NCBI GenBank assembly: GCA_050014495.1
Contig: JBEKDF010000050.1
Location: 1 to 17,325, forward strand
DNA length: 17,325 bases
DNA from: Candidatus Bathyarchaeia archaeon
GTDB taxonomy: Archaea; Thermoproteota; Bathyarchaeia; TCS64
Reading direction: 5' to 3'
Part shown: positions 8,290-17,325 of the stretch, in pieces
Numbering within the stretch: the first letter of the stretch is position 1
Layout of the letters: every line of letters starts with the position of its first letter
Made by a program: the position numbers and the translations under genes
Notes under the pieces: generated by a model
The model's database searches: none
The model's input: the letters and a program-made list of their open reading frames with translations, nothing else
Told to the model about the DNA's origin: nothing

Positions 8290-8470
8290 GATCTATGGAG
8301 CTGGGTCAAGTTCAGGCCGGTGATTGAAGAGAACAGGAGAAGATTCTCTGGAAAGGACATCCTCACTGGTTTCGAGTACCTTGGCGATGAGCTGATGAAG
8401 CTTAAGAAGGTGAGGGATCCAGGTTTCGAGATCCCGGCGGAATTCACTAGGTATATTTCCAAAAAAGTAA
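8290..8470 (+). pseudogene. 5'-deleted remnant of an array-family (DUF4760-like) paralog
   Basis: WVKFRPVIEENRRRFSGKDILTGFEYLGDELMKLKKVRDPGFEIPAEFTRYISKK aligns with the C-terminus of 15427..15975 (YAKYRPVIEEGRRRYHGKDYQRDFEFLADEVLRVMKEKDPTFVFPETLDKYVPDK); no N-terminal part or upstream repeat. Confidence 0.85.
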
Positions 8471-8480
8471 CTTTCTATCT

Positions 8481-8527
8481 CAATAGCCTTATCCTCACTT
8501 CCACCTGACTCTAATCTGTGAACTAGT
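8481..8527 (+). repeat. Array leader repeat copy 1 (promoter/RBS-containing)
   Basis: caatagccttatcctcacttccacctgactctaatctgtgaactagt directly before TTG 8528. Confidence 0.95.
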
Positions 8528-9049
8528 TTGGTGGATTTAGCACTTCTACAGAGTGTATCGTACATAGCTGGTGCCCTAGGAGTATGCGTAGCTGCAGTCT
8601 ACTACATAATTAACCTTAGATTCCAAGTTGAGTCCCGTAAAGCCCAACTATTCCAACAGCTAATAGTACCATGGCTTTCTAACGACTTCCAAAGAGAAGG
8701 AGCCGAACTGCTAGCAATGAAGTGGACGGACTTCGACGACTTCGCGAGGAAGTACGATTCAAGCGTTAACCCGGATAACTGGGCTATGAGAGCCAAGCAT
8801 TGGACCTTTCTCGAAAACATAGGCTATTCCGTTAAGAGGGGGCTGATAGACGCTGACATGGCGTATTATGAGTTGGCGGGGTTCTACGTGTTGTGGATGT
8901 GGGATAAGTTTGGTCCCGTGATTACTCAGTATAGGAAGACGATCAATATTCCTGAGTGGTTTATCAACTTCGAGTATTTGGCTAAGGAGCTTCATAAGCA
9001 GCATCCTATTGAGATTCGTGAGGTTTATGGGGAGTATAGGCCGAAGTAG
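8528..9049 (+). CDS. Array paralog, membrane-anchored DUF4760-like protein (N-terminal type B)
   Basis: TM helix ending YY; W.DFDDF..KY, LENIGYSVKRGLID, W.KF.P.I, FEYLA motifs shared with the other paralogs. Confidence 0.85.
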   Translation: MVDLALLQSVSYIAGALGVCVAAVYYIINLRFQVESRKAQLFQQLIVPWLSNDFQREGAELLAMKWTDFDDFARKYDSSVNPDNWAMRAKHWTFLENIGYSVKRGLIDADMAYYELAGFYVLWMWDKFGPVITQYRKTINIPEWFINFEYLAKELHKQHPIEIREVYGEYRPK

Positions 9050-9063
9050 GACCTCGATTTCCT

Positions 9064-9109
9064 CAATAGCCTTATCCTCATTTCCACCTGATACTAATCC
9101 AGTGATTAT
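9064..9109 (+). repeat. Array leader repeat copy 2
   Basis: caatagccttatcctcatttccacctgatactaatccagtgattat before ATG 9110. Confidence 0.95.
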
Positions 9110-10564
9110 ATGGTTGAATCAAGGACTAGAACAACTACCCGAAACTTGAAAATCGAAGAAACTCTTGACCCTGAAAACTGGGAGGAGATGAAGGACCTTG
9201 CAAGAAGAATGGCCGAGGATATGGTCACCTTCCAACAGAACATACGAGAGGAGCCTGAATTCAAACCAATACCTGAACCAGTCATAGAGTATCTAAAACA
9301 AAGTGCCCCTCGAGAGGGAATTGGAACTGAAGAGGTCTACCAGGAGTTCCTCACCAAGATTCTTGCAAATCACGGTAGCTGGTATCAGGGACCAAAGTTT
9401 TGGGCTATGGTTTTAGCCAACAGCACTCCCTTCGCGGCACTCGCCGAAATGTGGCGTTCAGGCCTTAACACCTCATCTGGCTGGCCTGCCCAATTGGACA
9501 CGAAGGTCGAGTTACAGGTGATACAGTGGTTCAAGGAAGTCCTCGGATACCCGAGTGAAGCATCGGGGGTGCTAGTCTCAGGGGGATCGATGGCGAACCT
9601 AGTCGCATTAACGGTTGCGAGGAACGCCAAAGCTGGCTACAACGTTAAGGAGATGGGTGTGAATGGGAAACTCACCTTCTATGGCTCCAGCGAGATGCAT
9701 AGCTCAATACAACGAGACCTGGAGACCCTCGGTGTGGGAAATGAGCAGCTTAGGAGAATACCCTCTGACGAGAACTATAAAATACGAATCGACGAACTGG
9801 ATAAAAGAATTGAGGAGGACAAGAAGAACGGCTACACGCCTGTTTGTGTAATAGGTAACTCTGGCTCAACTAACACCGGTTCCTTCGATGACTTCAACGC
9901 TTTATCGGAGCTGTGTAAGGAGAAGAACCTCTGGCTCCACGTTGACGGAGCCTTCGGAGCCTGGGTGGCATTATCGCAAAAGTATAAGCACCTGGTTTCC
10001 GGGCAGGAGAAGGCTGACTCCCTATCCTTCGACCTTCACAAGTGGATGTACATGCCGTTTGGGATCGGATGCACCCTGGTTAGGGACGCGGATGCTCACT
10101 ATCATACCTTCTCGGCTCACGCCGAGTATATCGCCCATGAGGATCGTTGGTTGATCGATTATGGTCCGGAGTTGAGTCGCCCTTTTAGGGCTTTGAAGGC
10201 ATGGATGTGCTTAAAGGAGCATGGCTTCGACAAGTATGGTCGGTTGATTGAGCAGAATATTGATCAGGCGAAGTATCTGAAGAGTTTGATAATGTCTCAT
10301 GCTGAACTTGAGTTGTTGGCACCCGTCGCCTCGAATGTTGTGTGCTTCCGATATGTGAGGGAGGGAGTTGACGAGAAAGGTCTCGATGTGATTAATCAGA
10401 GGATATTCGAGGAGGGTATGAAGGAGTTAGAGTTTGGTTATTGGCCCTCGAAGGTTGGGGATAGGTTCGCTATTAGGATTTGTATTGTGAATCACAGGAC
10501 TAGGCGTGAGGATCTTGCTCAGTTTGTTGACTGGGTTCTCGAAACGGGGAAGAAGGCTACTTAG
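9110..10564 (+). CDS. Group II PLP-dependent amino acid decarboxylase (aromatic-L-amino-acid/glutamate decarboxylase family)
   Basis: SGGSMAN, HSS, WLHVDGAFG, SFDLHKW (PLP lysine), ELSRPFRALK. Confidence 0.93.
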   Translation: MVESRTRTTTRNLKIEETLDPENWEEMKDLARRMAEDMVTFQQNIREEPEFKPIPEPVIEYLKQSAPREGIGTEEVYQEFLTKILANHGSWYQGPKFWAMVLANSTPFAALAEMWRSGLNTSSGWPAQLDTKVELQVIQWFKEVLGYPSEASGVLVSGGSMANLVALTVARNAKAGYNVKEMGVNGKLTFYGSSEMHSSIQRDLETLGVGNEQLRRIPSDENYKIRIDELDKRIEEDKKNGYTPVCVIGNSGSTNTGSFDDFNALSELCKEKNLWLHVDGAFGAWVALSQKYKHLVSGQEKADSLSFDLHKWMYMPFGIGCTLVRDADAHYHTFSAHAEYIAHEDRWLIDYGPELSRPFRALKAWMCLKEHGFDKYGRLIEQNIDQAKYLKSLIMSHAELELLAPVASNVVCFRYVREGVDEKGLDVINQRIFEEGMKELEFGYWPSKVGDRFAIRICIVNHRTRREDLAQFVDWVLETGKKAT

Positions 10565-10573
10565 GTTTTAGGG

Positions 10574-10620
10574 CATAGTCTTATCCTCACTTTCACCCGA
10601 TACTCAATTAGTGATGATTA
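10574..10620 (+). repeat. Array leader repeat copy 3
   Basis: catagtcttatcctcactttcacccgatactcaattagtgatgatta before TTG 10621. Confidence 0.9.
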
Positions 10621-11226
10621 TTGGTTGATGCGCAGACGGTTGGAGTTTTGGTCACAGGAGCGAGTGTGACGGTGGCGGCGATATACTATGTGATGAACAT
10701 CAGAATAAGCCAGAGGAACCAGGAGCTGAGTCTCAAAGCCCTTGAACAATCCGCTAAGACTCAGGAACTACAATTAAAGGCTCAGGAGCAGAACCTCGAA
10801 ACAAGACAGGCGCAGCTATTCATGCAGCTCTTCGACCGATTTAGCGGAACGGAGCTATCAATGGATTATGGTAAGCTGAGATACGACATCTGCCCAAAAT
10901 GCCACGACAACCCAGAGGAGTTTGGGGAGTACGTCACAAGGGAGATAAACGATCACTTTAATCCCGAGGTGTTTCTTCCGGTTCACCAGTTCGCTCTCTT
11001 CTTTGAGGGAGTCTCAGTTCTCGCCCAGAAGAGGCTGATAGATATGGATATGGTGGACAGACTCTTCGCTGACCGGATAGTCTGGTACTGGAATATGGCC
11101 AAGCCCCGCATACTCCAAGACAGGAAGGTTCAGGGACCAGAGCTGCTATCAAACTTCGAGTGGCTTGCCAATCAGATGGCAGGTAAATATACCGCACGTA
11201 CACAGTCGGGCCAGATTCTCCAATAA
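10621..11226 (+). CDS. Array paralog, DUF4760-like (type A anchor, 36-aa stalk)
   Basis: MVDAQTVGVLVT..YY, ETRQAQLFMQ, FFEGVSVLAQKRLID, NFEWLA. Confidence 0.85.
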   Translation: MVDAQTVGVLVTGASVTVAAIYYVMNIRISQRNQELSLKALEQSAKTQELQLKAQEQNLETRQAQLFMQLFDRFSGTELSMDYGKLRYDICPKCHDNPEEFGEYVTREINDHFNPEVFLPVHQFALFFEGVSVLAQKRLIDMDMVDRLFADRIVWYWNMAKPRILQDRKVQGPELLSNFEWLANQMAGKYTARTQSGQILQ

Positions 11227-11271
11227 CAGTTTTTATCTTCATCCGGATCCTAAACATATCTCGTGATTAGT
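11227..11271 (+). promoter_or_regulatory. Degenerate leader (TTTATC box plus GTGA RBS) with the same geometry as the array repeat
   Basis: agtttttatcttca...cgtgattagtATG; TTTATC 11232-11237 lies 34 nt before ATG 11272. Confidence 0.6.
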
Positions 11272-12255
11272 ATGGTCAACTGGTTGAGGGAGTCGAGAGA
11301 CCCGAGGCACAGACCGACGCTTGACGACTTCAGGGACGCGTCTATAAGGCTTAACGGTGTCATCCTCCGAACACCCCTGATTCCCCTGAGGAGGTACCGG
11401 GAGGAGGACACAGGTATCTATCTAAAGCCCGAGGTCCTGCAACCCATAGGCAGCTACAAGATAAGAGGAGTCTACAACTGGGTCGCGAGACTCAAACCCG
11501 AAGAGAGAGCCCGGGGAATCGCCACACTTAGCTCGGGGAACATGGCACAAGCCGTGGGCTATGTAGCTAACCTATTCAACATACCCTCAAGGGTAGCAAT
11601 ATCAGAAGCAGCGCCTCAGAGCAAGATCAACAACTGCAGGAAATATGGCTCTGAGATCGAGCTAGTCAAGTTCAACGACGAGACCTTCTCCAACGCTGAC
11701 TCACTCGCCCACGGTCACTGCTTCATCCACACCCTAAGAGAGTACGGTTTGATGGACGGTTACGGGACCATAGGCTTGGAGGTACTTGAGGACACACCAG
11801 ACGTCGACACAATATACGTGGCACTGGGAGCTGGGTTCTTATCGTGTGGAATATCCCTCGCGGCGAAGGCACTGAATCCAGGCATAAGAGTCATCGGAGT
11901 CAACGCCGAGAACAGCCCACATTACTACTCTGCGCTTAGAGGGGGCAAACCGATTCCATACAACTTCAAGCCGACGATAGCCGACGGAATCGACCCCGGC
12001 GGTGCCCTAATGCCGAAGGAATCTATCGAGATGGTTCGGGAATGCCTGGACGATGTTGTCACAGTGTCTGAGGAGGAGATGATTAAGGCTATTCGCCTGC
12101 TAGCCGTGGAGAATAAGCTGGTGGTGGAGGGGGCCGGGGCTTCGAGTCTGGCGGCTGCGTTTAAGTCGCCTAAAGGGGAGCGTGGTAAGTCTGTTTGCAT
12201 ACTTTCTGGTGGAAGCATTGATGCTGTGAAGCTCGCCCACATACTTGAGAATTAG
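11272..12255 (+). CDS. PLP-dependent threonine/serine dehydratase (or racemase) family enzyme, no regulatory domain
   Basis: LKPEVLQPIGSYKIRG (PLP lysine), SSGNMAQAV, GYGTIGLE, VVEGAGA, ILSGGSID; ATG 11272 follows the GTGA RBS (ORF track start 11263). Confidence 0.9.
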   Translation: MVNWLRESRDPRHRPTLDDFRDASIRLNGVILRTPLIPLRRYREEDTGIYLKPEVLQPIGSYKIRGVYNWVARLKPEERARGIATLSSGNMAQAVGYVANLFNIPSRVAISEAAPQSKINNCRKYGSEIELVKFNDETFSNADSLAHGHCFIHTLREYGLMDGYGTIGLEVLEDTPDVDTIYVALGAGFLSCGISLAAKALNPGIRVIGVNAENSPHYYSALRGGKPIPYNFKPTIADGIDPGGALMPKESIEMVRECLDDVVTVSEEEMIKAIRLLAVENKLVVEGAGASSLAAAFKSPKGERGKSVCILSGGSIDAVKLAHILEN

Positions 12256-12260
12256 TCGCT

Positions 12261-12310
12261 AATAGCAGGTCTTATCCTCACTTCCACCAGAATGTAATCA
12301 GTGATGAATA
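12261..12310 (+). repeat. Array leader repeat copy 5
   Basis: aatagcaggtcttatcctcacttccaccagaatgtaatcagtgatgaata before ATG 12311. Confidence 0.9.
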
Positions 12311-12886
12311 ATGGTTGATGTTAGTTTGCTTCAATCGGCATCGTATGTGGCAGCAGCGATAGGAGTCTGCATGGCAGCATTCTACTACGCATTAAACCTA
12401 AGAGAAACAACGAGGAACCGACGCATGGCACTCACCACGAACCTCATGCAGTCACTCTTCTCCGAGGAGGGAAACCGACGCTTCCTAAACCTACTGATGA
12501 TGGAGTGGAAAGACCAGGATGACTTCATGAAGAAGTACGACTCGAGGGTGAACGGCCAGAACTTCATAGATAGGATGACCTACTGGGAGGCATGCGAGAT
12601 ACTGGGATACCAGTACAGGGCTGGGCTCATCGATAAGCAGACGCTGTACGGCATCGGGCGGGGGCAGATCACGGCGGTTTGGGCGAAGTTCAAGCCCGTC
12701 ATCGAGGAGTACAGGAAGGCCGACTTTCTCCCGGATATGTTTGAGAACTTCGAGTTCCTCGCAAATGACCTGTGGAAGATCGCTGAGGGTAAGGGTGCTA
12801 CTGGTAGGCGTTATGAGACTCATGGGGTCAGGGCGGATGAGTATGAGGGTGCCTTTAGTGGTGAGGGGGCTAAGCAGGGTCTGTAG
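12311..12886 (+). CDS. Array paralog, DUF4760-like (type B anchor)
   Basis: MVDVSLLQSASY..YY, WKDQDDFMKKYDS, EILGYQYRAGLID, WAKFKPVIEEYR, NFEFLA. Confidence 0.85.
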   Translation: MVDVSLLQSASYVAAAIGVCMAAFYYALNLRETTRNRRMALTTNLMQSLFSEEGNRRFLNLLMMEWKDQDDFMKKYDSRVNGQNFIDRMTYWEACEILGYQYRAGLIDKQTLYGIGRGQITAVWAKFKPVIEEYRKADFLPDMFENFEFLANDLWKIAEGKGATGRRYETHGVRADEYEGAFSGEGAKQGL

Positions 12887-12890
12887 GTGT

Positions 12891-12937
12891 CAATAGCCTT
12901 ATCTTCACTCCTACCTGACTCTAACCAGTGACTTATA
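12891..12937 (+). repeat. Array leader repeat copy 6
   Basis: caatagccttatcttcactcctacctgactctaaccagtgacttata before TTG 12938. Confidence 0.93.
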
Positions 12938-13492
12938 TTGGTTGATGCGCAGACGGTTGGAGTATTGGTCACAGCGGCAAGCGTGACGGTAGCGGCGTTC
13001 TACTACATCTACAACCTCAGAGTATCAAACCGCATGAGTCGAATCACATTCACAAACAGCATACTCCAGAGCCGCATAATCAAAGAAGAGATGAAGGTTT
13101 ACGTCGAACTACTAAATGACAGCTGGGACAGCTACCAGGACTACCTGAAGAAGTACGGGGAGGGGAACAGCGAAGGCTGGGCCCGCTCGAGGGCGTGGTT
13201 CTACTTCTACGACACACTGGGGTACCTTCTCATGGATAAGGTGGTGGATAATCGAACCCTGTACACTGGTGGTGGGGGTGGAATAGCGGTTATTCGGCTG
13301 TGGACTAAGTTTTCGCCGATATTCAGGGAGATGAGGGCCACTGGTTCTGAGGATTATATGAAGGGTTTTGAGTATCTCTTCTATGAGATAGCTCGAATGC
13401 GTGACAGGCTTGATCCGAGCTTCGAGAGGAATAACCCGGCCTCTTATTCTCTTTATAAATCGGGCGAGTACGAGGCACCCTTTTCGAAATGA
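12938..13492 (+). CDS. Array paralog, DUF4760-like (type A anchor)
   Basis: MVDAQTVGVLVT..YY, WDSYQDYLKKYG, YDTLGYLL, WTKFSPI, GFEYL. Confidence 0.85.
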   Translation: MVDAQTVGVLVTAASVTVAAFYYIYNLRVSNRMSRITFTNSILQSRIIKEEMKVYVELLNDSWDSYQDYLKKYGEGNSEGWARSRAWFYFYDTLGYLLMDKVVDNRTLYTGGGGGIAVIRLWTKFSPIFREMRATGSEDYMKGFEYLFYEIARMRDRLDPSFERNNPASYSLYKSGEYEAPFSK

Positions 13493-13539
13493 TCGGTGAT
13501 TGGAAACGGGTGCTTATTGGGGGATTGATCTCAATCGAG

Positions 13540-13585
13540 ATAGTCTTATCCTCACTTCCACCTGACTCTAATCCAGTGATGATTA
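13540..13585 (+). repeat. Array leader repeat copy 7
   Basis: atagtcttatcctcacttccacctgactctaatccagtgatgatta before ATG 13586. Confidence 0.95.
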
Positions 13586-14227
13586 ATGGTTGACTTAACG
13601 TTGCTCCAGTCGGTTAGCTACATCGCTGGGGCGTTGGGAGTATGCGTAGCTGCGATATATTATGTGATGAACCTGAGGATTAGCCAGCGGAACCAGCAGC
13701 TTAGCCTGCAAGCACTGGAACAATCCGCTAAGGCACAGGAACTCGGCTTGAAGACCCAGGAGCTCGCCTTGAAGTCCCAGCAGCAGAACCTAGAGACGAG
13801 GCAGGCCCAGCTCTTCATGCAGATATACCTACGCTACCTCGAACCGGACCTATTCAGCGACAACCTGCCAAAACTCTTCAAAAGAAGCTGGAAGGGTGCC
13901 GAGGACTACTGGAAAAAATATGAAACCGAAAAAGACGGGGGAAACCTAAACATGATGATGGCCTTCTACGAGGGCATCGCGGTCCTGGTCAACAGGGGCA
14001 TGCTTGACATCGGCCTAGTTTATGAGATCATGCCGACGAATGTGACTGCCTTCTGGGGAAGGTATGGCACTCTGATTAAGGAGATGAGGACCATGGGCTA
14101 CCCTCCACGATTGTATTGCTTGGTTGAGGAGCTCTCTGATAAGTTAACTGAGTACGCTAAGAAGAAAAGTGATCAAATAGTAACGGACTACACAGCAGCA
14201 GAATTGAGGCCCTCCAATCCAGTATGA
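13586..14227 (+). CDS. Array paralog, DUF4760-like (type B anchor, 43-aa stalk)
   Basis: MVDLTLLQSVSY..YY, ETRQAQLFMQ, FYEGIAVLVNRGMLD. Confidence 0.85.
   Translation: MVDLTLLQSVSYIAGALGVCVAAIYYVMNLRISQRNQQLSLQALEQSAKAQELGLKTQELALKSQQQNLETRQAQLFMQIYLRYLEPDLFSDNLPKLFKRSWKGAEDYWKKYETEKDGGNLNMMMAFYEGIAVLVNRGMLDIGLVYEIMPTNVTAFWGRYGTLIKEMRTMGYPPRLYCLVEELSDKLTEYAKKKSDQIVTDYTAAELRPSNPV
13736..13777 (+). repeat. 21-nt in-frame tandem duplication (one heptad)
   Basis: caggaactcggcttgaagacc / caggagctcgccttgaagtcc, 18 of 21 identical (QELGLKT QELALKS). Confidence 0.85.
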
Positions 14228-14240
14228 TTACTGCACGCGC

Positions 14241-14263
14241 TAGTCTTATCTTCACTTCAACCT
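14241..14263 (+). repeat. Truncated array leader repeat (5' half only, no gene follows)
   Basis: tagtcttatcttcacttcaacct then unrelated atgcgtacgcg; no GTGA or start. Confidence 0.8.
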
Positions 14264-14289: not shown

Positions 14290-15273
14290 TTATTTAATCG
14301 AGAAAAGCTTCCTCGCGTTCTCCCCGAGGATCATCTTCTTCTCCTCCTCCGTGAAGGCGCTCTCCCTTATGCTCGTTATGGCACGAGGCAGGTCACCGAT
14401 CACGTGAGGATAGTCGCTCCCCATCAGCATCTTCTCCGCTCCAACGAAGTCATAGGCGCAATTCAGCGCCGGCTGATAGAAGGTGACTGTGTCGTAGTAC
14501 ATGTTCCTGAGGAACTCGCTTGGAGGCCTGGAGATGTTCACCTTACACTCGGGATACGCCCTGTAGCAGAAGTCGAGCCTCTCCAGAAGGTAGGGCAGGG
14601 TCCCACCAAGGTGCGCGAGGATAAGCTTCAGGGAGGGATACTTCACGAACACGCCGCTGAAGATCATCCTCAGCGCACCCAGTGAGGTGTCGAAGGGGAA
14701 TCCGATCATCGGGGCCAACCGGTAGTCCTTGAAGATGTCGCCCGCGAGAGGCGTAAATGGGTGCATGAAGAGCGGGACACCCATCCTGGATATCTTGTCG
14801 TAGATGGGCCAGAGCTCAGGTGAGTCGAGGGTCTTCCCCGCTAGGTTGGAGAAGGTGACTACGCCCTTCATCCCCAGGTCATTGACCGCCCGGTCCAGCT
14901 CATCCATGGCCCCGTCAATGTCGTTGAAGGGGAGGGTGGCCATGCCGGCGAACCTGTCCGGGTACTTCTCGGCGATCGCGGACGTCTCGTCGTTCACGAG
15001 CCTCGCGAAGGCGATGCTGTCCTTCGGCTCCATCGAGTAGACGGATGGCGTCGTCATGCTCAGGATCTGCATATCCATGCCGCCCTTATCCATGTCCTTC
15101 AGCCTCTTCTCGATGTTGCTCATCTCCTCGGTTATAGTGACGATCCTGACGCCTCGGTCCACGATGATGGGGCGCCCCAGCTCGTCCTTTTCGAGGACGG
15201 GTGAGGTCTTTCTCTTCTTGAGTGCTTCGAGGTATTTTGGTGGGAAGTAATGAACATGAACGTCGATGCTCAT
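14290..15273 (-). CDS. Amidohydrolase-2 family protein (ACMSD/aromatic acid decarboxylase-like)
   Basis: MSIDVHVH (HxH), LFMHP, LAHLGGTLPYL, MGSDYPH; ATG 15273 has a GTGA RBS and CTTATC box upstream (ORF track start 15333). Confidence 0.9.
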   Translation of the reverse strand: MSIDVHVHYFPPKYLEALKKRKTSPVLEKDELGRPIIVDRGVRIVTITEEMSNIEKRLKDMDKGGMDMQILSMTTPSVYSMEPKDSIAFARLVNDETSAIAEKYPDRFAGMATLPFNDIDGAMDELDRAVNDLGMKGVVTFSNLAGKTLDSPELWPIYDKISRMGVPLFMHPFTPLAGDIFKDYRLAPMIGFPFDTSLGALRMIFSGVFVKYPSLKLILAHLGGTLPYLLERLDFCYRAYPECKVNISRPPSEFLRNMYYDTVTFYQPALNCAYDFVGAEKMLMGSDYPHVIGDLPRAITSIRESAFTEEEKKMILGENARKLFSIK

Positions 15274-15318
15274 CTTCAGTTCACGGAGAGAGTTTAGAAG
15301 CACCCTGAGATAAGACTT
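15274..15318 (-). promoter_or_regulatory. Probable promoter/RBS of the amidohydrolase gene
   Basis: Minus strand reads agtCTTATCtca...ccGTGAactgaagATG; CTTATC is 35 nt before ATG, the same spacing as in the repeat. Confidence 0.6.
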
Positions 15319-15379
15319 CGGAGGCGGATTCATTACTGTAATCGCTTTGGAATAGTCTTCATGTTGATGGTCCCATCCT

Positions 15380-15426
15380 CAATAGCCTTATCCTCACTTC
15401 CACCTGACCCTAATCCAGTGATTCTA
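15380..15426 (+). repeat. Array leader repeat copy 9
   Basis: caatagccttatcctcacttccacctgaccctaatccagtgattcta before TTG 15427. Confidence 0.95.
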
Positions 15427-15975
15427 TTGGTTGATGCACAGACGATCGGAATATTGGTAACAGCTGTAAGCGTGACGATAGCAGCGGTCTACTATGTGAT
15501 GAACCTCCGAGTCCAGCAGAGAAACGTGAAGACCACCATCGAGACGAGGCGAATAGGACTCCTAGACAGCGTCATCAATCGAGCGAGCGACGCAGAGGGG
15601 ATGAGGTACTTGTTTGAACTAATGAGATATGAGTGGAGCGACTACGGGGACTTCGAGAGGAAATACGGTTCAGAGAACAACCCCGAAGCCGCAGCCAAGA
15701 GATATGCGTTGTGTAACACCTACAACTCGATTGGCATGATGATCCGTAAGGGTCTGGTTGACGCTGTGGACCTCTACGATTTGGGTTTAACGGGTCCAAT
15801 CTACCTATATGCGAAGTACAGACCCGTCATCGAGGAAGGTCGGAGGAGGTACCACGGGAAGGACTACCAGAGGGACTTCGAGTTCCTCGCGGATGAGGTG
15901 CTGAGGGTCATGAAGGAGAAGGATCCCACATTCGTTTTCCCTGAGACTCTTGACAAGTACGTCCCGGATAAGTGA
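15427..15975 (+). CDS. Array paralog, DUF4760-like (type A anchor, 15-aa stalk)
   Basis: True start TTG 15427 (MVDAQTIGILVT) by homology; WSDYGDFERKYGS, YNSIGMMIRKGLVD, DFEFLA. Confidence 0.85.
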   Translation: MVDAQTIGILVTAVSVTIAAVYYVMNLRVQQRNVKTTIETRRIGLLDSVINRASDAEGMRYLFELMRYEWSDYGDFERKYGSENNPEAAAKRYALCNTYNSIGMMIRKGLVDAVDLYDLGLTGPIYLYAKYRPVIEEGRRRYHGKDYQRDFEFLADEVLRVMKEKDPTFVFPETLDKYVPDK

Positions 15976-15981
15976 ACGTCA

Positions 15982-16028
15982 CAATAGCCTTATCCTCACT
16001 TCAACCCGACTCTAACCAGTGATGAATA
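15982..16028 (+). repeat. Array leader repeat copy 10
   Basis: caatagccttatcctcacttcaacccgactctaaccagtgatgaata before ATG 16029. Confidence 0.95.
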
Positions 16029-16622
16029 ATGGTAGATCTAGCTGAGGTCCAAACAGCCTACTACATGGTGGCAGCAACCGGAGTAATCGTGGCAGCGATC
16101 TACTACGTCTACAACATGAGGATAAGCCAGAGAAACTCAGCACTAGCCCTAAAAGCGCAGGAACAGAACCTCGAGACGAGGCAAACCCAGCTCTTCATGC
16201 AGGTCATGGATCAAATGGATCAGCAGTGGCAAGCCGACTTCTGGGATCTGCTCAACAACTGGCAGTGGGAGGACTTCGACGACTACATGAAGAAGTACGG
16301 CACACTAGAGAACCCCAAATTCATGAACGTATTCAGCACCCTAGAGCACATCGGAATACTCGTCAACGATGGGCAGCTGAACCCGAGGAGATTATACCTC
16401 TGGATTGGGGGGTTCCTTATCTCGCTGTGGAGCAAGTATGAGCCAGTAATCCTGGGGTGGAGGGAGAGGTACGAGAAACCTCCTAAGGGCATGTTCTCCG
16501 AGTTCGTCGAGTCTCTTGTTCTGGCGATGAGTAATGAGCGGAGGGTGGATGATTTCAGTGCACGCTTGGAGTCGAGGAGGCTTGCCTGGGAGTCCCTCAG
16601 AGCGGCATCATCCCCTCAATAG
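16029..16622 (+). CDS. Array paralog, DUF4760-like (type C anchor, 22-aa stalk)
   Basis: MVDLAEVQTAYY..AAIYY, ETRQTQLFMQ, WEDFDDYMKKYG, LEHIGILV, WSKYEPVI; stop TAG lies inside the next repeat. Confidence 0.85.
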   Translation: MVDLAEVQTAYYMVAATGVIVAAIYYVYNMRISQRNSALALKAQEQNLETRQTQLFMQVMDQMDQQWQADFWDLLNNWQWEDFDDYMKKYGTLENPKFMNVFSTLEHIGILVNDGQLNPRRLYLWIGGFLISLWSKYEPVILGWRERYEKPPKGMFSEFVESLVLAMSNERRVDDFSARLESRRLAWESLRAASSPQ

Positions 16623-16663
16623 CCTTATCCTCACTTCCACCTGAGTGTAAGCCGTGAACATGC
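16617..16663 (+). repeat. Array leader repeat copy 11
   Basis: caatagccttatcctcacttccacctgagtgtaagccgtgaacatgc before TTG 16664. Confidence 0.93.
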
Positions 16664-17206
16664 TTGTCTGAGATTCAAACAATAGGAGTGATAGTGACTG
16701 CTGCAAGTGTGACGGTAGCAGCGATCTACTACATCTTCACGCTGAGGATAAACATGAGGACACAGCAACTGGCACTCAAGGCACAGGAGCAGAACCTAGA
16801 GACGCGCCAGGCCCAGCTATTCCAATCGGTTTACTCCAAGTTCTCGGCAAGGGAGGTCCTCCAAGACTTCAACGCAATCACGTTATGGAGCTGGAGAGAC
16901 TACGACGACTTCATGGAGAAGTATGGGCCGAACCACCCAGAGCATTACGTGGGTTTCTGGGAGCTGGCTAACTTCTACGAGGGCATAGGCGTCTACTTGA
17001 AACGGGGTCTACTTGATGCGGGCATGATAGATGATTTCCTCAGCGGACCGATACGCATCTTCTGGGAGAAGCTGAGGCCCATTATACTTGAGCATAGGAA
17101 GAGGGAGAACTGGCCAACTTATGGGGAGTGGATTGAGTACCTCTACAACGAGATCCAGCCAATAGCACTAAGGCAGCACCCAGAGATTGAGACCAAAACC
17201 AAATAA
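16664..17206 (+). CDS. Array paralog, DUF4760-like (type A-like anchor, 22-aa stalk)
   Basis: QTIGVIVTAASVTVAAIYY, ETRQAQLF, WRDYDDFMEKYG, NFYEGIGVYLKRGLLD, WEKLRPII, WIEYL. Confidence 0.85.
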   Translation: MSEIQTIGVIVTAASVTVAAIYYIFTLRINMRTQQLALKAQEQNLETRQAQLFQSVYSKFSAREVLQDFNAITLWSWRDYDDFMEKYGPNHPEHYVGFWELANFYEGIGVYLKRGLLDAGMIDDFLSGPIRIFWEKLRPIILEHRKRENWPTYGEWIEYLYNEIQPIALRQHPEIETKTK

Positions 17207-17248
17207 TCTTATCCTCACTTCCACCTGACCCTTACTCAGGTGAATGTA
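17202..17248 (+). repeat. Array leader repeat copy 12
   Basis: aataatcttatcctcacttccacctgacccttactcaggtgaatgta before TTG 17249. Confidence 0.92.
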
Positions 17249-17325
17249 TTGGTTGATGCGCAGACGGTTGGAGTGTTAGCGACAGCGGCAAGCGTGACAG
17301 TTGCGGCGATATACTACATGATAAC
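17249..17325 (+). CDS. Next array paralog (type A anchor), cut by the window edge
   Basis: TTG GTT GAT GCG CAG ACG... = MVDAQTVGVLATAASVTVAAIYYMI; not in the ORF track. Confidence 0.85.
   Translation, partial: MVDAQTVGVLATAASVTVAAIYYMI

Follow-up and report, generated by a model that had tools for sequence, protein, structure and literature searches.

We propose that a group II PLP-dependent decarboxylase gene in a Bathyarchaeia genome arrived as casposon cargo: it would have landed in the core of a DUF4760-associated repeat at position 10573, and a later deletion or recombination would have fused it to the head of a DUF4760 gene at 9064. We put the probability of this reading at roughly 55%. 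In the order of events that we envisage, a Cas1-mobilised element carrying the decarboxylase as the last gene at its right end lands in the core of the head at 10573, a landing that would leave the DUF4760 gene at 10621-11226 with a head of its own. Deletion or recombination would then remove the left part of the element and fuse the decarboxylase with the head at 9064. The similarity that these enzymes and DUF4760 have in common at GTGA...ATGGTTGA would probably have mediated the fusion, and the head at 9064 could originally have lain either outside the element or inside it. The sequence-only reading of this DNA, which took the repeat in front of the decarboxylase for a capture or expression module, missed that the first 13 bp of that repeat are a casposon target and that the informative scar lies at the 3' end of the gene.

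The decarboxylase and its head

The window, by which we mean the whole 17,325-nt stretch that was analysed, holds 11 co-oriented copies of a 28-bp repeat, eight full DUF4760 paralogs, the group II PLP decarboxylase, a PALP-family gene and a reversed amidohydrolase gene (Table 1). Contigs from three public peat runs, which are near-identical and may represent the source population, cover the whole stretch around the decarboxylase with 0 differences, so it is not a misassembly. Among the neighbours, the PALP-family gene has a 58% paralog on contig C21 with a recognisable head, and the amidohydrolase gene has a core-like word at 15309-15321, 35 nt 5' of its ATG, which is the spacing found in DUF4760 heads. 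The final DUF4760 unit is cut by the contig end, and a short ORF at 2222-2494, cut at a GC run, may encode the N-terminal portion of an iron-sulfur protein like epoxyqueuosine reductase.

Table 1. Features around the decarboxylase, in window positions
Positions	Strand	Feature	Remark
8293..8508	+	remnant of a DUF4760 gene (3' fragment) that continues into the first repeat, with core at 8481-8493	begins at a GC-run junction
8528..9049	+	DUF4760 paralog 5' of the decarboxylase	
9064..9076	+	13-bp core CAATAGCCTTATC, 5' half of a DUF4760 head	variant of the casposon target duplication
9077..9091	+	15-bp arm	one base off consensus
9092..9117	+	leader of DUF4760 type, including the ribosome site GTGA (9102-9105), and the opening 8 bases of the coding sequence	
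9110..10564	+	group II PLP-dependent decarboxylase, 484 aa	
10560..10572	+	likeness to a right end (terminal inverted repeat), decayed and overlapping the stop codon	9/13 in strict register, 10/13 with a 1-nt slip
10573..10600	+	next core (10573-10585) and arm, head of the DUF4760 gene 10621-11226	
11226..12255	+	PALP-family (threonine dehydratase-like) gene 11272-12255	behind a strongly decayed head
12264..14227	+	three more units of head and DUF4760 gene	cores at 12264, 12891, 13538
14238..14263	+	gene-less head stub	ends at a GC-run junction
14290..15321	-	amidohydrolase gene (start 15273)	reversed between two repeats
15380..17325	+	four more units of head and DUF4760 gene	cores at 15380, 15982, 16617, 17201

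The decarboxylase ORF is a full-length match to PF00282 (E 4e-62, 210 bits against a curated cut-off of 27), with its motifs intact (H197, D279 and K311, and the PLP lysine motif SFDLHKW at 306-312). Its closest solved structure is that of the pyridoxal-dependent decarboxylase of Ruminococcus gnavus (PDB 4OBU, E 2e-74), the best solved relative over the full length, with aligned catalytic motifs; the substrate of the latter is tryptophan. What the sequence-only reading had seen around this gene is borne out. The repeat in front of it scores 46.5 of a maximum of 51.2 bits on a genome-trained matrix, where a shuffled genome gave three matches of at least 8 bits and none of at least 12; the ATG, which reads ATGGTTGA, lies 43 nt from the reference base of the repeat, and the DUF4760 paralogs start at +42 to +45 in 68 of 87 cases; the next core starts 8 nt past the stop; and a gene foreign to the family does stand behind a DUF4760 head, among units that have been reshuffled at the repeat. 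The core has weak BRE/TATA likeness, and the first 12 nt of the arm are free of G, as are casposon left ends.

Likeness of the 5' side of the decarboxylase to a DUF4760 head stops at about 9117-9121, and the join lies somewhere within 9092-9117 or just 3' of it. The shared first codons had been taken to place this join, and here the reading fails: 5 of 16 congener homologues that lack the repeat, a paralog from the same genome included, also start MV[DE] behind GTGA, a start found in 9 of 427 other genes. These codons are therefore ready-made microhomology and do not locate the join. Two further expectations, that homologues would lack both the repeat and the N-terminal extension, fit the data. 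At the 21 other decarboxylase loci of congeners whose 5' end is visible, the repeat was never found in front at 8 bits or more, and the nearest relative (62%) has 3 residues ahead of the conserved EETL motif against 15 here; at least 13 residues stand ahead of EETL in 12 of 117 database relatives. One homologue from another clade (L028, 43%) has 15 N-terminal residues with similar letters, starts MVDS and has a variant head on its 5' side, and its sister in a quick search tree has 3 residues ahead of EETL. This N-terminus may represent a second capture, or there may have been one old capture followed by swaps of 5' ends between genes, which would count against the order of events proposed above.

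The same loci bear on whether the repeat is a shared regulator site of an amino-acid catabolism regulon, carried independently by DUF4760 genes and by the enzymes. Heads are indeed present in front of two PLP enzymes of the window and of some homologues, as such a regulon would predict, but the absence of the repeat in front of all 21 congener loci, the 87 of 206 genomic copies with no co-oriented ORF of at least 80 aa behind them and the functionally unrelated genes behind heads largely refute this idea, which we regard as very improbable.

Repeat copies across the genome

The repeat occurs in 206 copies of at least 14 bits in this 96%-complete genome, and it has two parts, a 13-bp core and a 15-bp arm, which are followed by the ribosome site and the start of a DUF4760 gene. 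A search for the near-exact motif found it in 10 of 17 congeners and in 0 of 43 other genomes. Almost all related loci come from Bathyarchaeia, and diverged heads stand 5' of DUF4760 genes in other genera of the family. A DUF4760 ORF follows 87 of the 206 copies and another ORF of at least 80 aa follows 32, while 33 copies face a convergent gene and 54 have neither that nor a co-oriented ORF; conversely, 88 of the 105 DUF4760 family ORFs with an N-terminus have a copy on their 5' side. The 119 non-family copies are heads cut on their 3' side, with a likeness to the head that ends at scattered points between about +14 and +144, often at GC runs. The repeat is therefore not a fixed-point capture site and not integron-like. 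Non-family genes of at least 100 aa behind heads, of which 20 of 30 were scanned, encode hydrolases, reductases and a transporter, among others, and share no pathway.

The head is likely the promoter of the DUF4760 genes. A tRNA-promoter matrix (n=40) peaks on the core in the expected register, weakly, with a mean of 1.5 bits against 11.3 for tRNA promoters, and the core-like word at the amidohydrolase gene keeps the head's distance from the ATG. DUF4760 itself had no match in PADLOC, an Atlas search returned DUF4760 clusters only, and a literature search on DUF4760 function gave nothing relevant. An origin of the repeat from tRNA 3' ends was rejected, as it has no likeness to the tRNA genes of the genome (best local score 10), and an Rfam search of the repeat gave nothing relevant. 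Neither a reverse transcriptase nor an IS200-type Y1 transposase was found in the genome, and the IS elements at contig ends are located at GC runs, away from cores. Thirteen tyrosine recombinase matches occur in the genome, five of them within about 3 kb of repeat copies (G000 C40:4991, C44:2335, C15:8464, C29:23164 and C56:7475), and two of these five are beside tRNA genes. A recurrent spacer unit of 60-96 nt, which contains another, decayed core, is found either ahead of a head or between two of them, in congeners as well as in the source genome (G000 C7:91905-91985, C16:188, C32:19881, C75:3909, C85:3619 and others).

Cas1 elements and the 3' end of the decarboxylase

The core occurs about 250 times in the genome, also with arms of other kinds: G/T-rich simple repeats on its left and their complements on its right. 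Fifty-one cores touch a transposon-type end (34 a left end, 30 a right end, 13 both, and 13 a left end together with an array arm), against a single match when the core is reversed, and a core follows 35 of the 56 13-mers that resemble an end. A C at the second core base marks 41 of the 51 end-touching cores and 37 of 166 plain array copies. Units with a transposon-type left end finish in a right end in 12 of 23 cases, compared with 8 of 124 array-type units (p 7e-7), and end types pair better than shuffled ones (p 0.01, n=14). One segment adjoins a core on either side (contigs C6 and C57), and contig C34 holds a 3.5-kb unit with 112-bp inverted ends between two cores. In their structure, cores with inverted ends correspond to a transposon whose target site has been duplicated.

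A solo Cas1 is the candidate enzyme. It is present at six places in the source genome, with ten matches to the family profile, and Cas2 was not found in this genome. The one intact copy, on contig C80, keeps the catalytic E, H and acidic residue at positions aligned to 4N06/6OPM and is predicted to have integration activity. A right end and core lie within 2.5 kb 3' of four of the six Cas1 places, against 27 of 1938 long ORFs. One congener, G016, has three Cas1 genes that are each bounded by cores and have ends that match (L078, L079 and L080), and L078 has its Cas1 between two identical cores with inverted ends. Among 79 related Cas1 loci from other genomes, 59 had enough flank for a de novo search for ends, which found a target duplication and inverted ends in 33 (control 3; one match to an N run was dropped). 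Thirty-two elements, a set that may overlap elements also counted as individual loci, resolve to a 13-bp duplication with the element running from C to G; 16 of the 19 non-palindromic duplications are perfect. Their consensus is ATTAAA-N-TTTAAT, of which the core of the DUF4760 head is a divergent form.

These elements combine a solo Cas1, terminal inverted repeats and a target duplication of the type that measures about 14-15 bp in casposons and 13 bp here. No polymerase family, the family B DNA polymerase of casposon families 1-4 included, was found among 24 representatives of non-Cas1 protein clusters from the 33 elements, the clusters being of proteins of at least 300 aa or common to at least three elements. 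The ends (L093-L171) are simple repeats of at least seven types, CCAAAC, TC, TTC, AAC and AC units among them, identical in type at both ends of an element and free of C in the last 12 bases in 31 of 32. Of many Cas1 copies only the C-terminal tail survives, and behind it come one or two cargo genes, which vary, and then a right end and core (L078-L083, L090 and L172; in the source genome C17:5286-5372, C24:45474-45821 and C79:2411-2755); on contig C17 such a tail is joined to the core through a GC run, and an IS1182/IS5-type transposase (L079:7334-8299) is inserted within a Cas1 element whose Cas1 has lost a catalytic glutamate. That casposons land on promoters as a general habit was rejected: an outward ORF start lies 25-70 nt from the duplication in only 2 of 32 elements, whereas 152 of 535 control positions had one when the rule was less strict. 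None of the 79 loci from other genomes has a DUF4760 gene, and DUF4760 genes do occur inside bounded units at L083 and L044. Within the genus, Cas1 or its remnants occur in 7 of the 10 genomes that have the repeat and in 2 of the 7 that lack it, a weak co-occurrence.

The evidence that ties the decarboxylase to such elements lies at its 3' end, where a decayed right end overlaps the stop and directly precedes the next core; its decay and the stop codon within it count against our reading. Scored against the genome's own right-end sequence, tails reach at least 10/13 at 14 of 206 repeat sites and at 1 of 2730 background stops, and the core that follows carries the C at its second base, like transposon-touched cores. 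A second, near-identical decarboxylase 3' end, which is not in the source assembly, has a like tail before a core in three public runs of the first contig set and two of the second; a 629-nt contig (runs X2, X3, X9 and X10) carries this second 3' end, with a different C-terminus. In G016 a different decarboxylase lies directly behind a core and left end within a DUF4760 array (L089), and in G011 a PALP gene has a head on its left and a right end with core on its right (L172).

The decarboxylase unit is not an intact element, because its left core belongs to the plain array type and matches the right core at 10/13 bases, with 3 differences. No left end survives in the window, the left side of the unit is an array arm with no inverted partner, and the unit thus has neither the matching ends nor the identical flanking duplication of a non-autonomous casposon. 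If the heads alone are to account for this, the repeat is only the promoter and start of DUF4760 genes, deletion or end-joining within a fluid island put the decarboxylase behind one of the heads, and casposons have no more than the core in common with them. Head stubs that end at scattered places, often at GC runs, speak for that account, as do the presence of heads where this Cas1 was not found and the spread of crossovers over the repeat described below. It leaves unexplained the end-like tail at 10560-10572, at a level seen once in 2730 background stops, the like tail in the second decarboxylase copy and the left end before the L089 decarboxylase, and we hold it to be possible but doubtful.

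Array growth and relation to known systems

The arrays are reshuffled at the repeat. Thirty-four pairs of repeat copies share their upstream flank and 17 their downstream flank, none share both, and one unit is duplicated repeat to repeat at 96%. The crossovers fall within the repeat (12 and 11 non-overlapping pairs, one pair being in both sets); if a single crossover point is assumed, it is best placed at +4 to +11, within the core or next to it, but a distribution across the repeat gives a better fit (lnL -293.0 against -301.5). Repeat-to-repeat skips in public contigs were rejected as empty sites, since they have 20-30 letters on one side and represent other repeat copies. Among the 206 copies, the core is preceded by T in 129 and by G in 42, so most array junctions were not made by an element end, and neighbouring cores genome-wide are no more alike than shuffled ones (p 0.06-0.37). 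An arm inverted before the core was never seen in the source genome, nor in any of 18 genomes, and related heads stand 5' of DUF4760 genes in four genomes without a match to this Cas1 family (G010, G018, G023 and G034). Given that an element end is missing from most junctions, that the arm was never seen inverted and that heads occur in genomes without a match to this Cas1, the arrays were probably built by recombination between heads. Array growth is thus likely the work of recombination between many heads, with casposons adding cargo, and not of the casposase.

A direct part for Cas1 has to be weighed against this. According to parts of the casposon literature, a casposase needs only five terminal bases (PMC6614799), and casposons insert in tandem and may carry their own target (PMC5137440, PMC10359463), which leaves direct recombination of core-plus-arm sites by Cas1 conceivable. 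Core and arm would then be the casposase site, and units would be cut out and re-inserted core to core in the manner of an integron. The first 12 nt of the arm lack G in 166 of 206 copies, as in 31 of 32 true left ends, one true left end starts CTCAC, the best single crossover point lies in or at the core, and whole units are duplicated repeat to repeat; 26 upstream ORFs genome-wide stop at the TAG within the core, against 2 at the arm TGA. Such a system is hard to reconcile with an arm that is never inverted before the core, with crossovers better fitted by a spread than by one point, with the arm variants containing G that are common in congeners and with a repeat that has no hairpin, and as an account of the window we consider it quite unlikely. 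The wider claim, that a Cas1 transposase made the DUF4760 promoter into about 250 recombination sites between which whole genes move core to core, the head switching captured genes on, we find unlikely too.

The CRISPR integrase is presumed to derive from casposons, and CRISPR arrays are proposed to have arisen through insertion at a single target again and again. In this genome, a single target of 13 bp occurs about 250 times; it forms the boundaries within arrays of whole genes, and both Cas1 elements and cargo units without Cas1 make use of it. With enzyme, target and end sequence all defined, the system allows a direct test of how repeat-separated arrays are built by a casposase, and casposon landing with later fusion to a head would give uncultured sediment archaea a concrete route to gain metabolic genes together with a ready start signal. 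A link between DUF4760 heads and casposons did not appear in the openly accessible literature searched.

Integron cassette arrays, those of archaea included (Ghaly et al., 10.1101/2022.02.06.479319), likewise consist of co-oriented units split by one repeat, in variable order and often with stop codons in the repeat. Unlike in such arrays, the repeat here heads a gene, the joins are scattered and there is no fixed crossover point; an attC-type hairpin was found on neither strand of two repeat copies (z -0.2 to 0.9), nor does the repeat have an Rfam family. The family 2 casposons AciBoo-C1 and MetMaz-C1 (PMC5137440, PMC6614799 and PMC10359463) are similar in having a Cas1 integrase, a fixed target and tandem insertion at the same site, with a 14-15 bp duplication and a need for only five terminal bases, and the first nine letters of the Methanosarcina mazei duplication are shared with one core variant. 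They differ in carrying PolB, which was not found in the elements here, in a quoted M. mazei end that starts with G where the ends here start with C, and in having one target locus against about 250 cores. Family 5 casposons, from what parts of Salgado et al. (2022, PMC9755687) report, are also similar, with a solo Cas1, inverted ends and mostly no family B polymerase, and their Cas1_938, Cas1_1200 and Cas1_1269 resemble this Cas1 by eye; those parts contain no mention of Bathyarchaeia or of 'TSD'. Compared with what they describe, the elements here have 13-bp duplications and simple-repeat ends that match in type at both sides, are accompanied by many Cas1-less cargo units, and use as their target the head of an amplified gene family.
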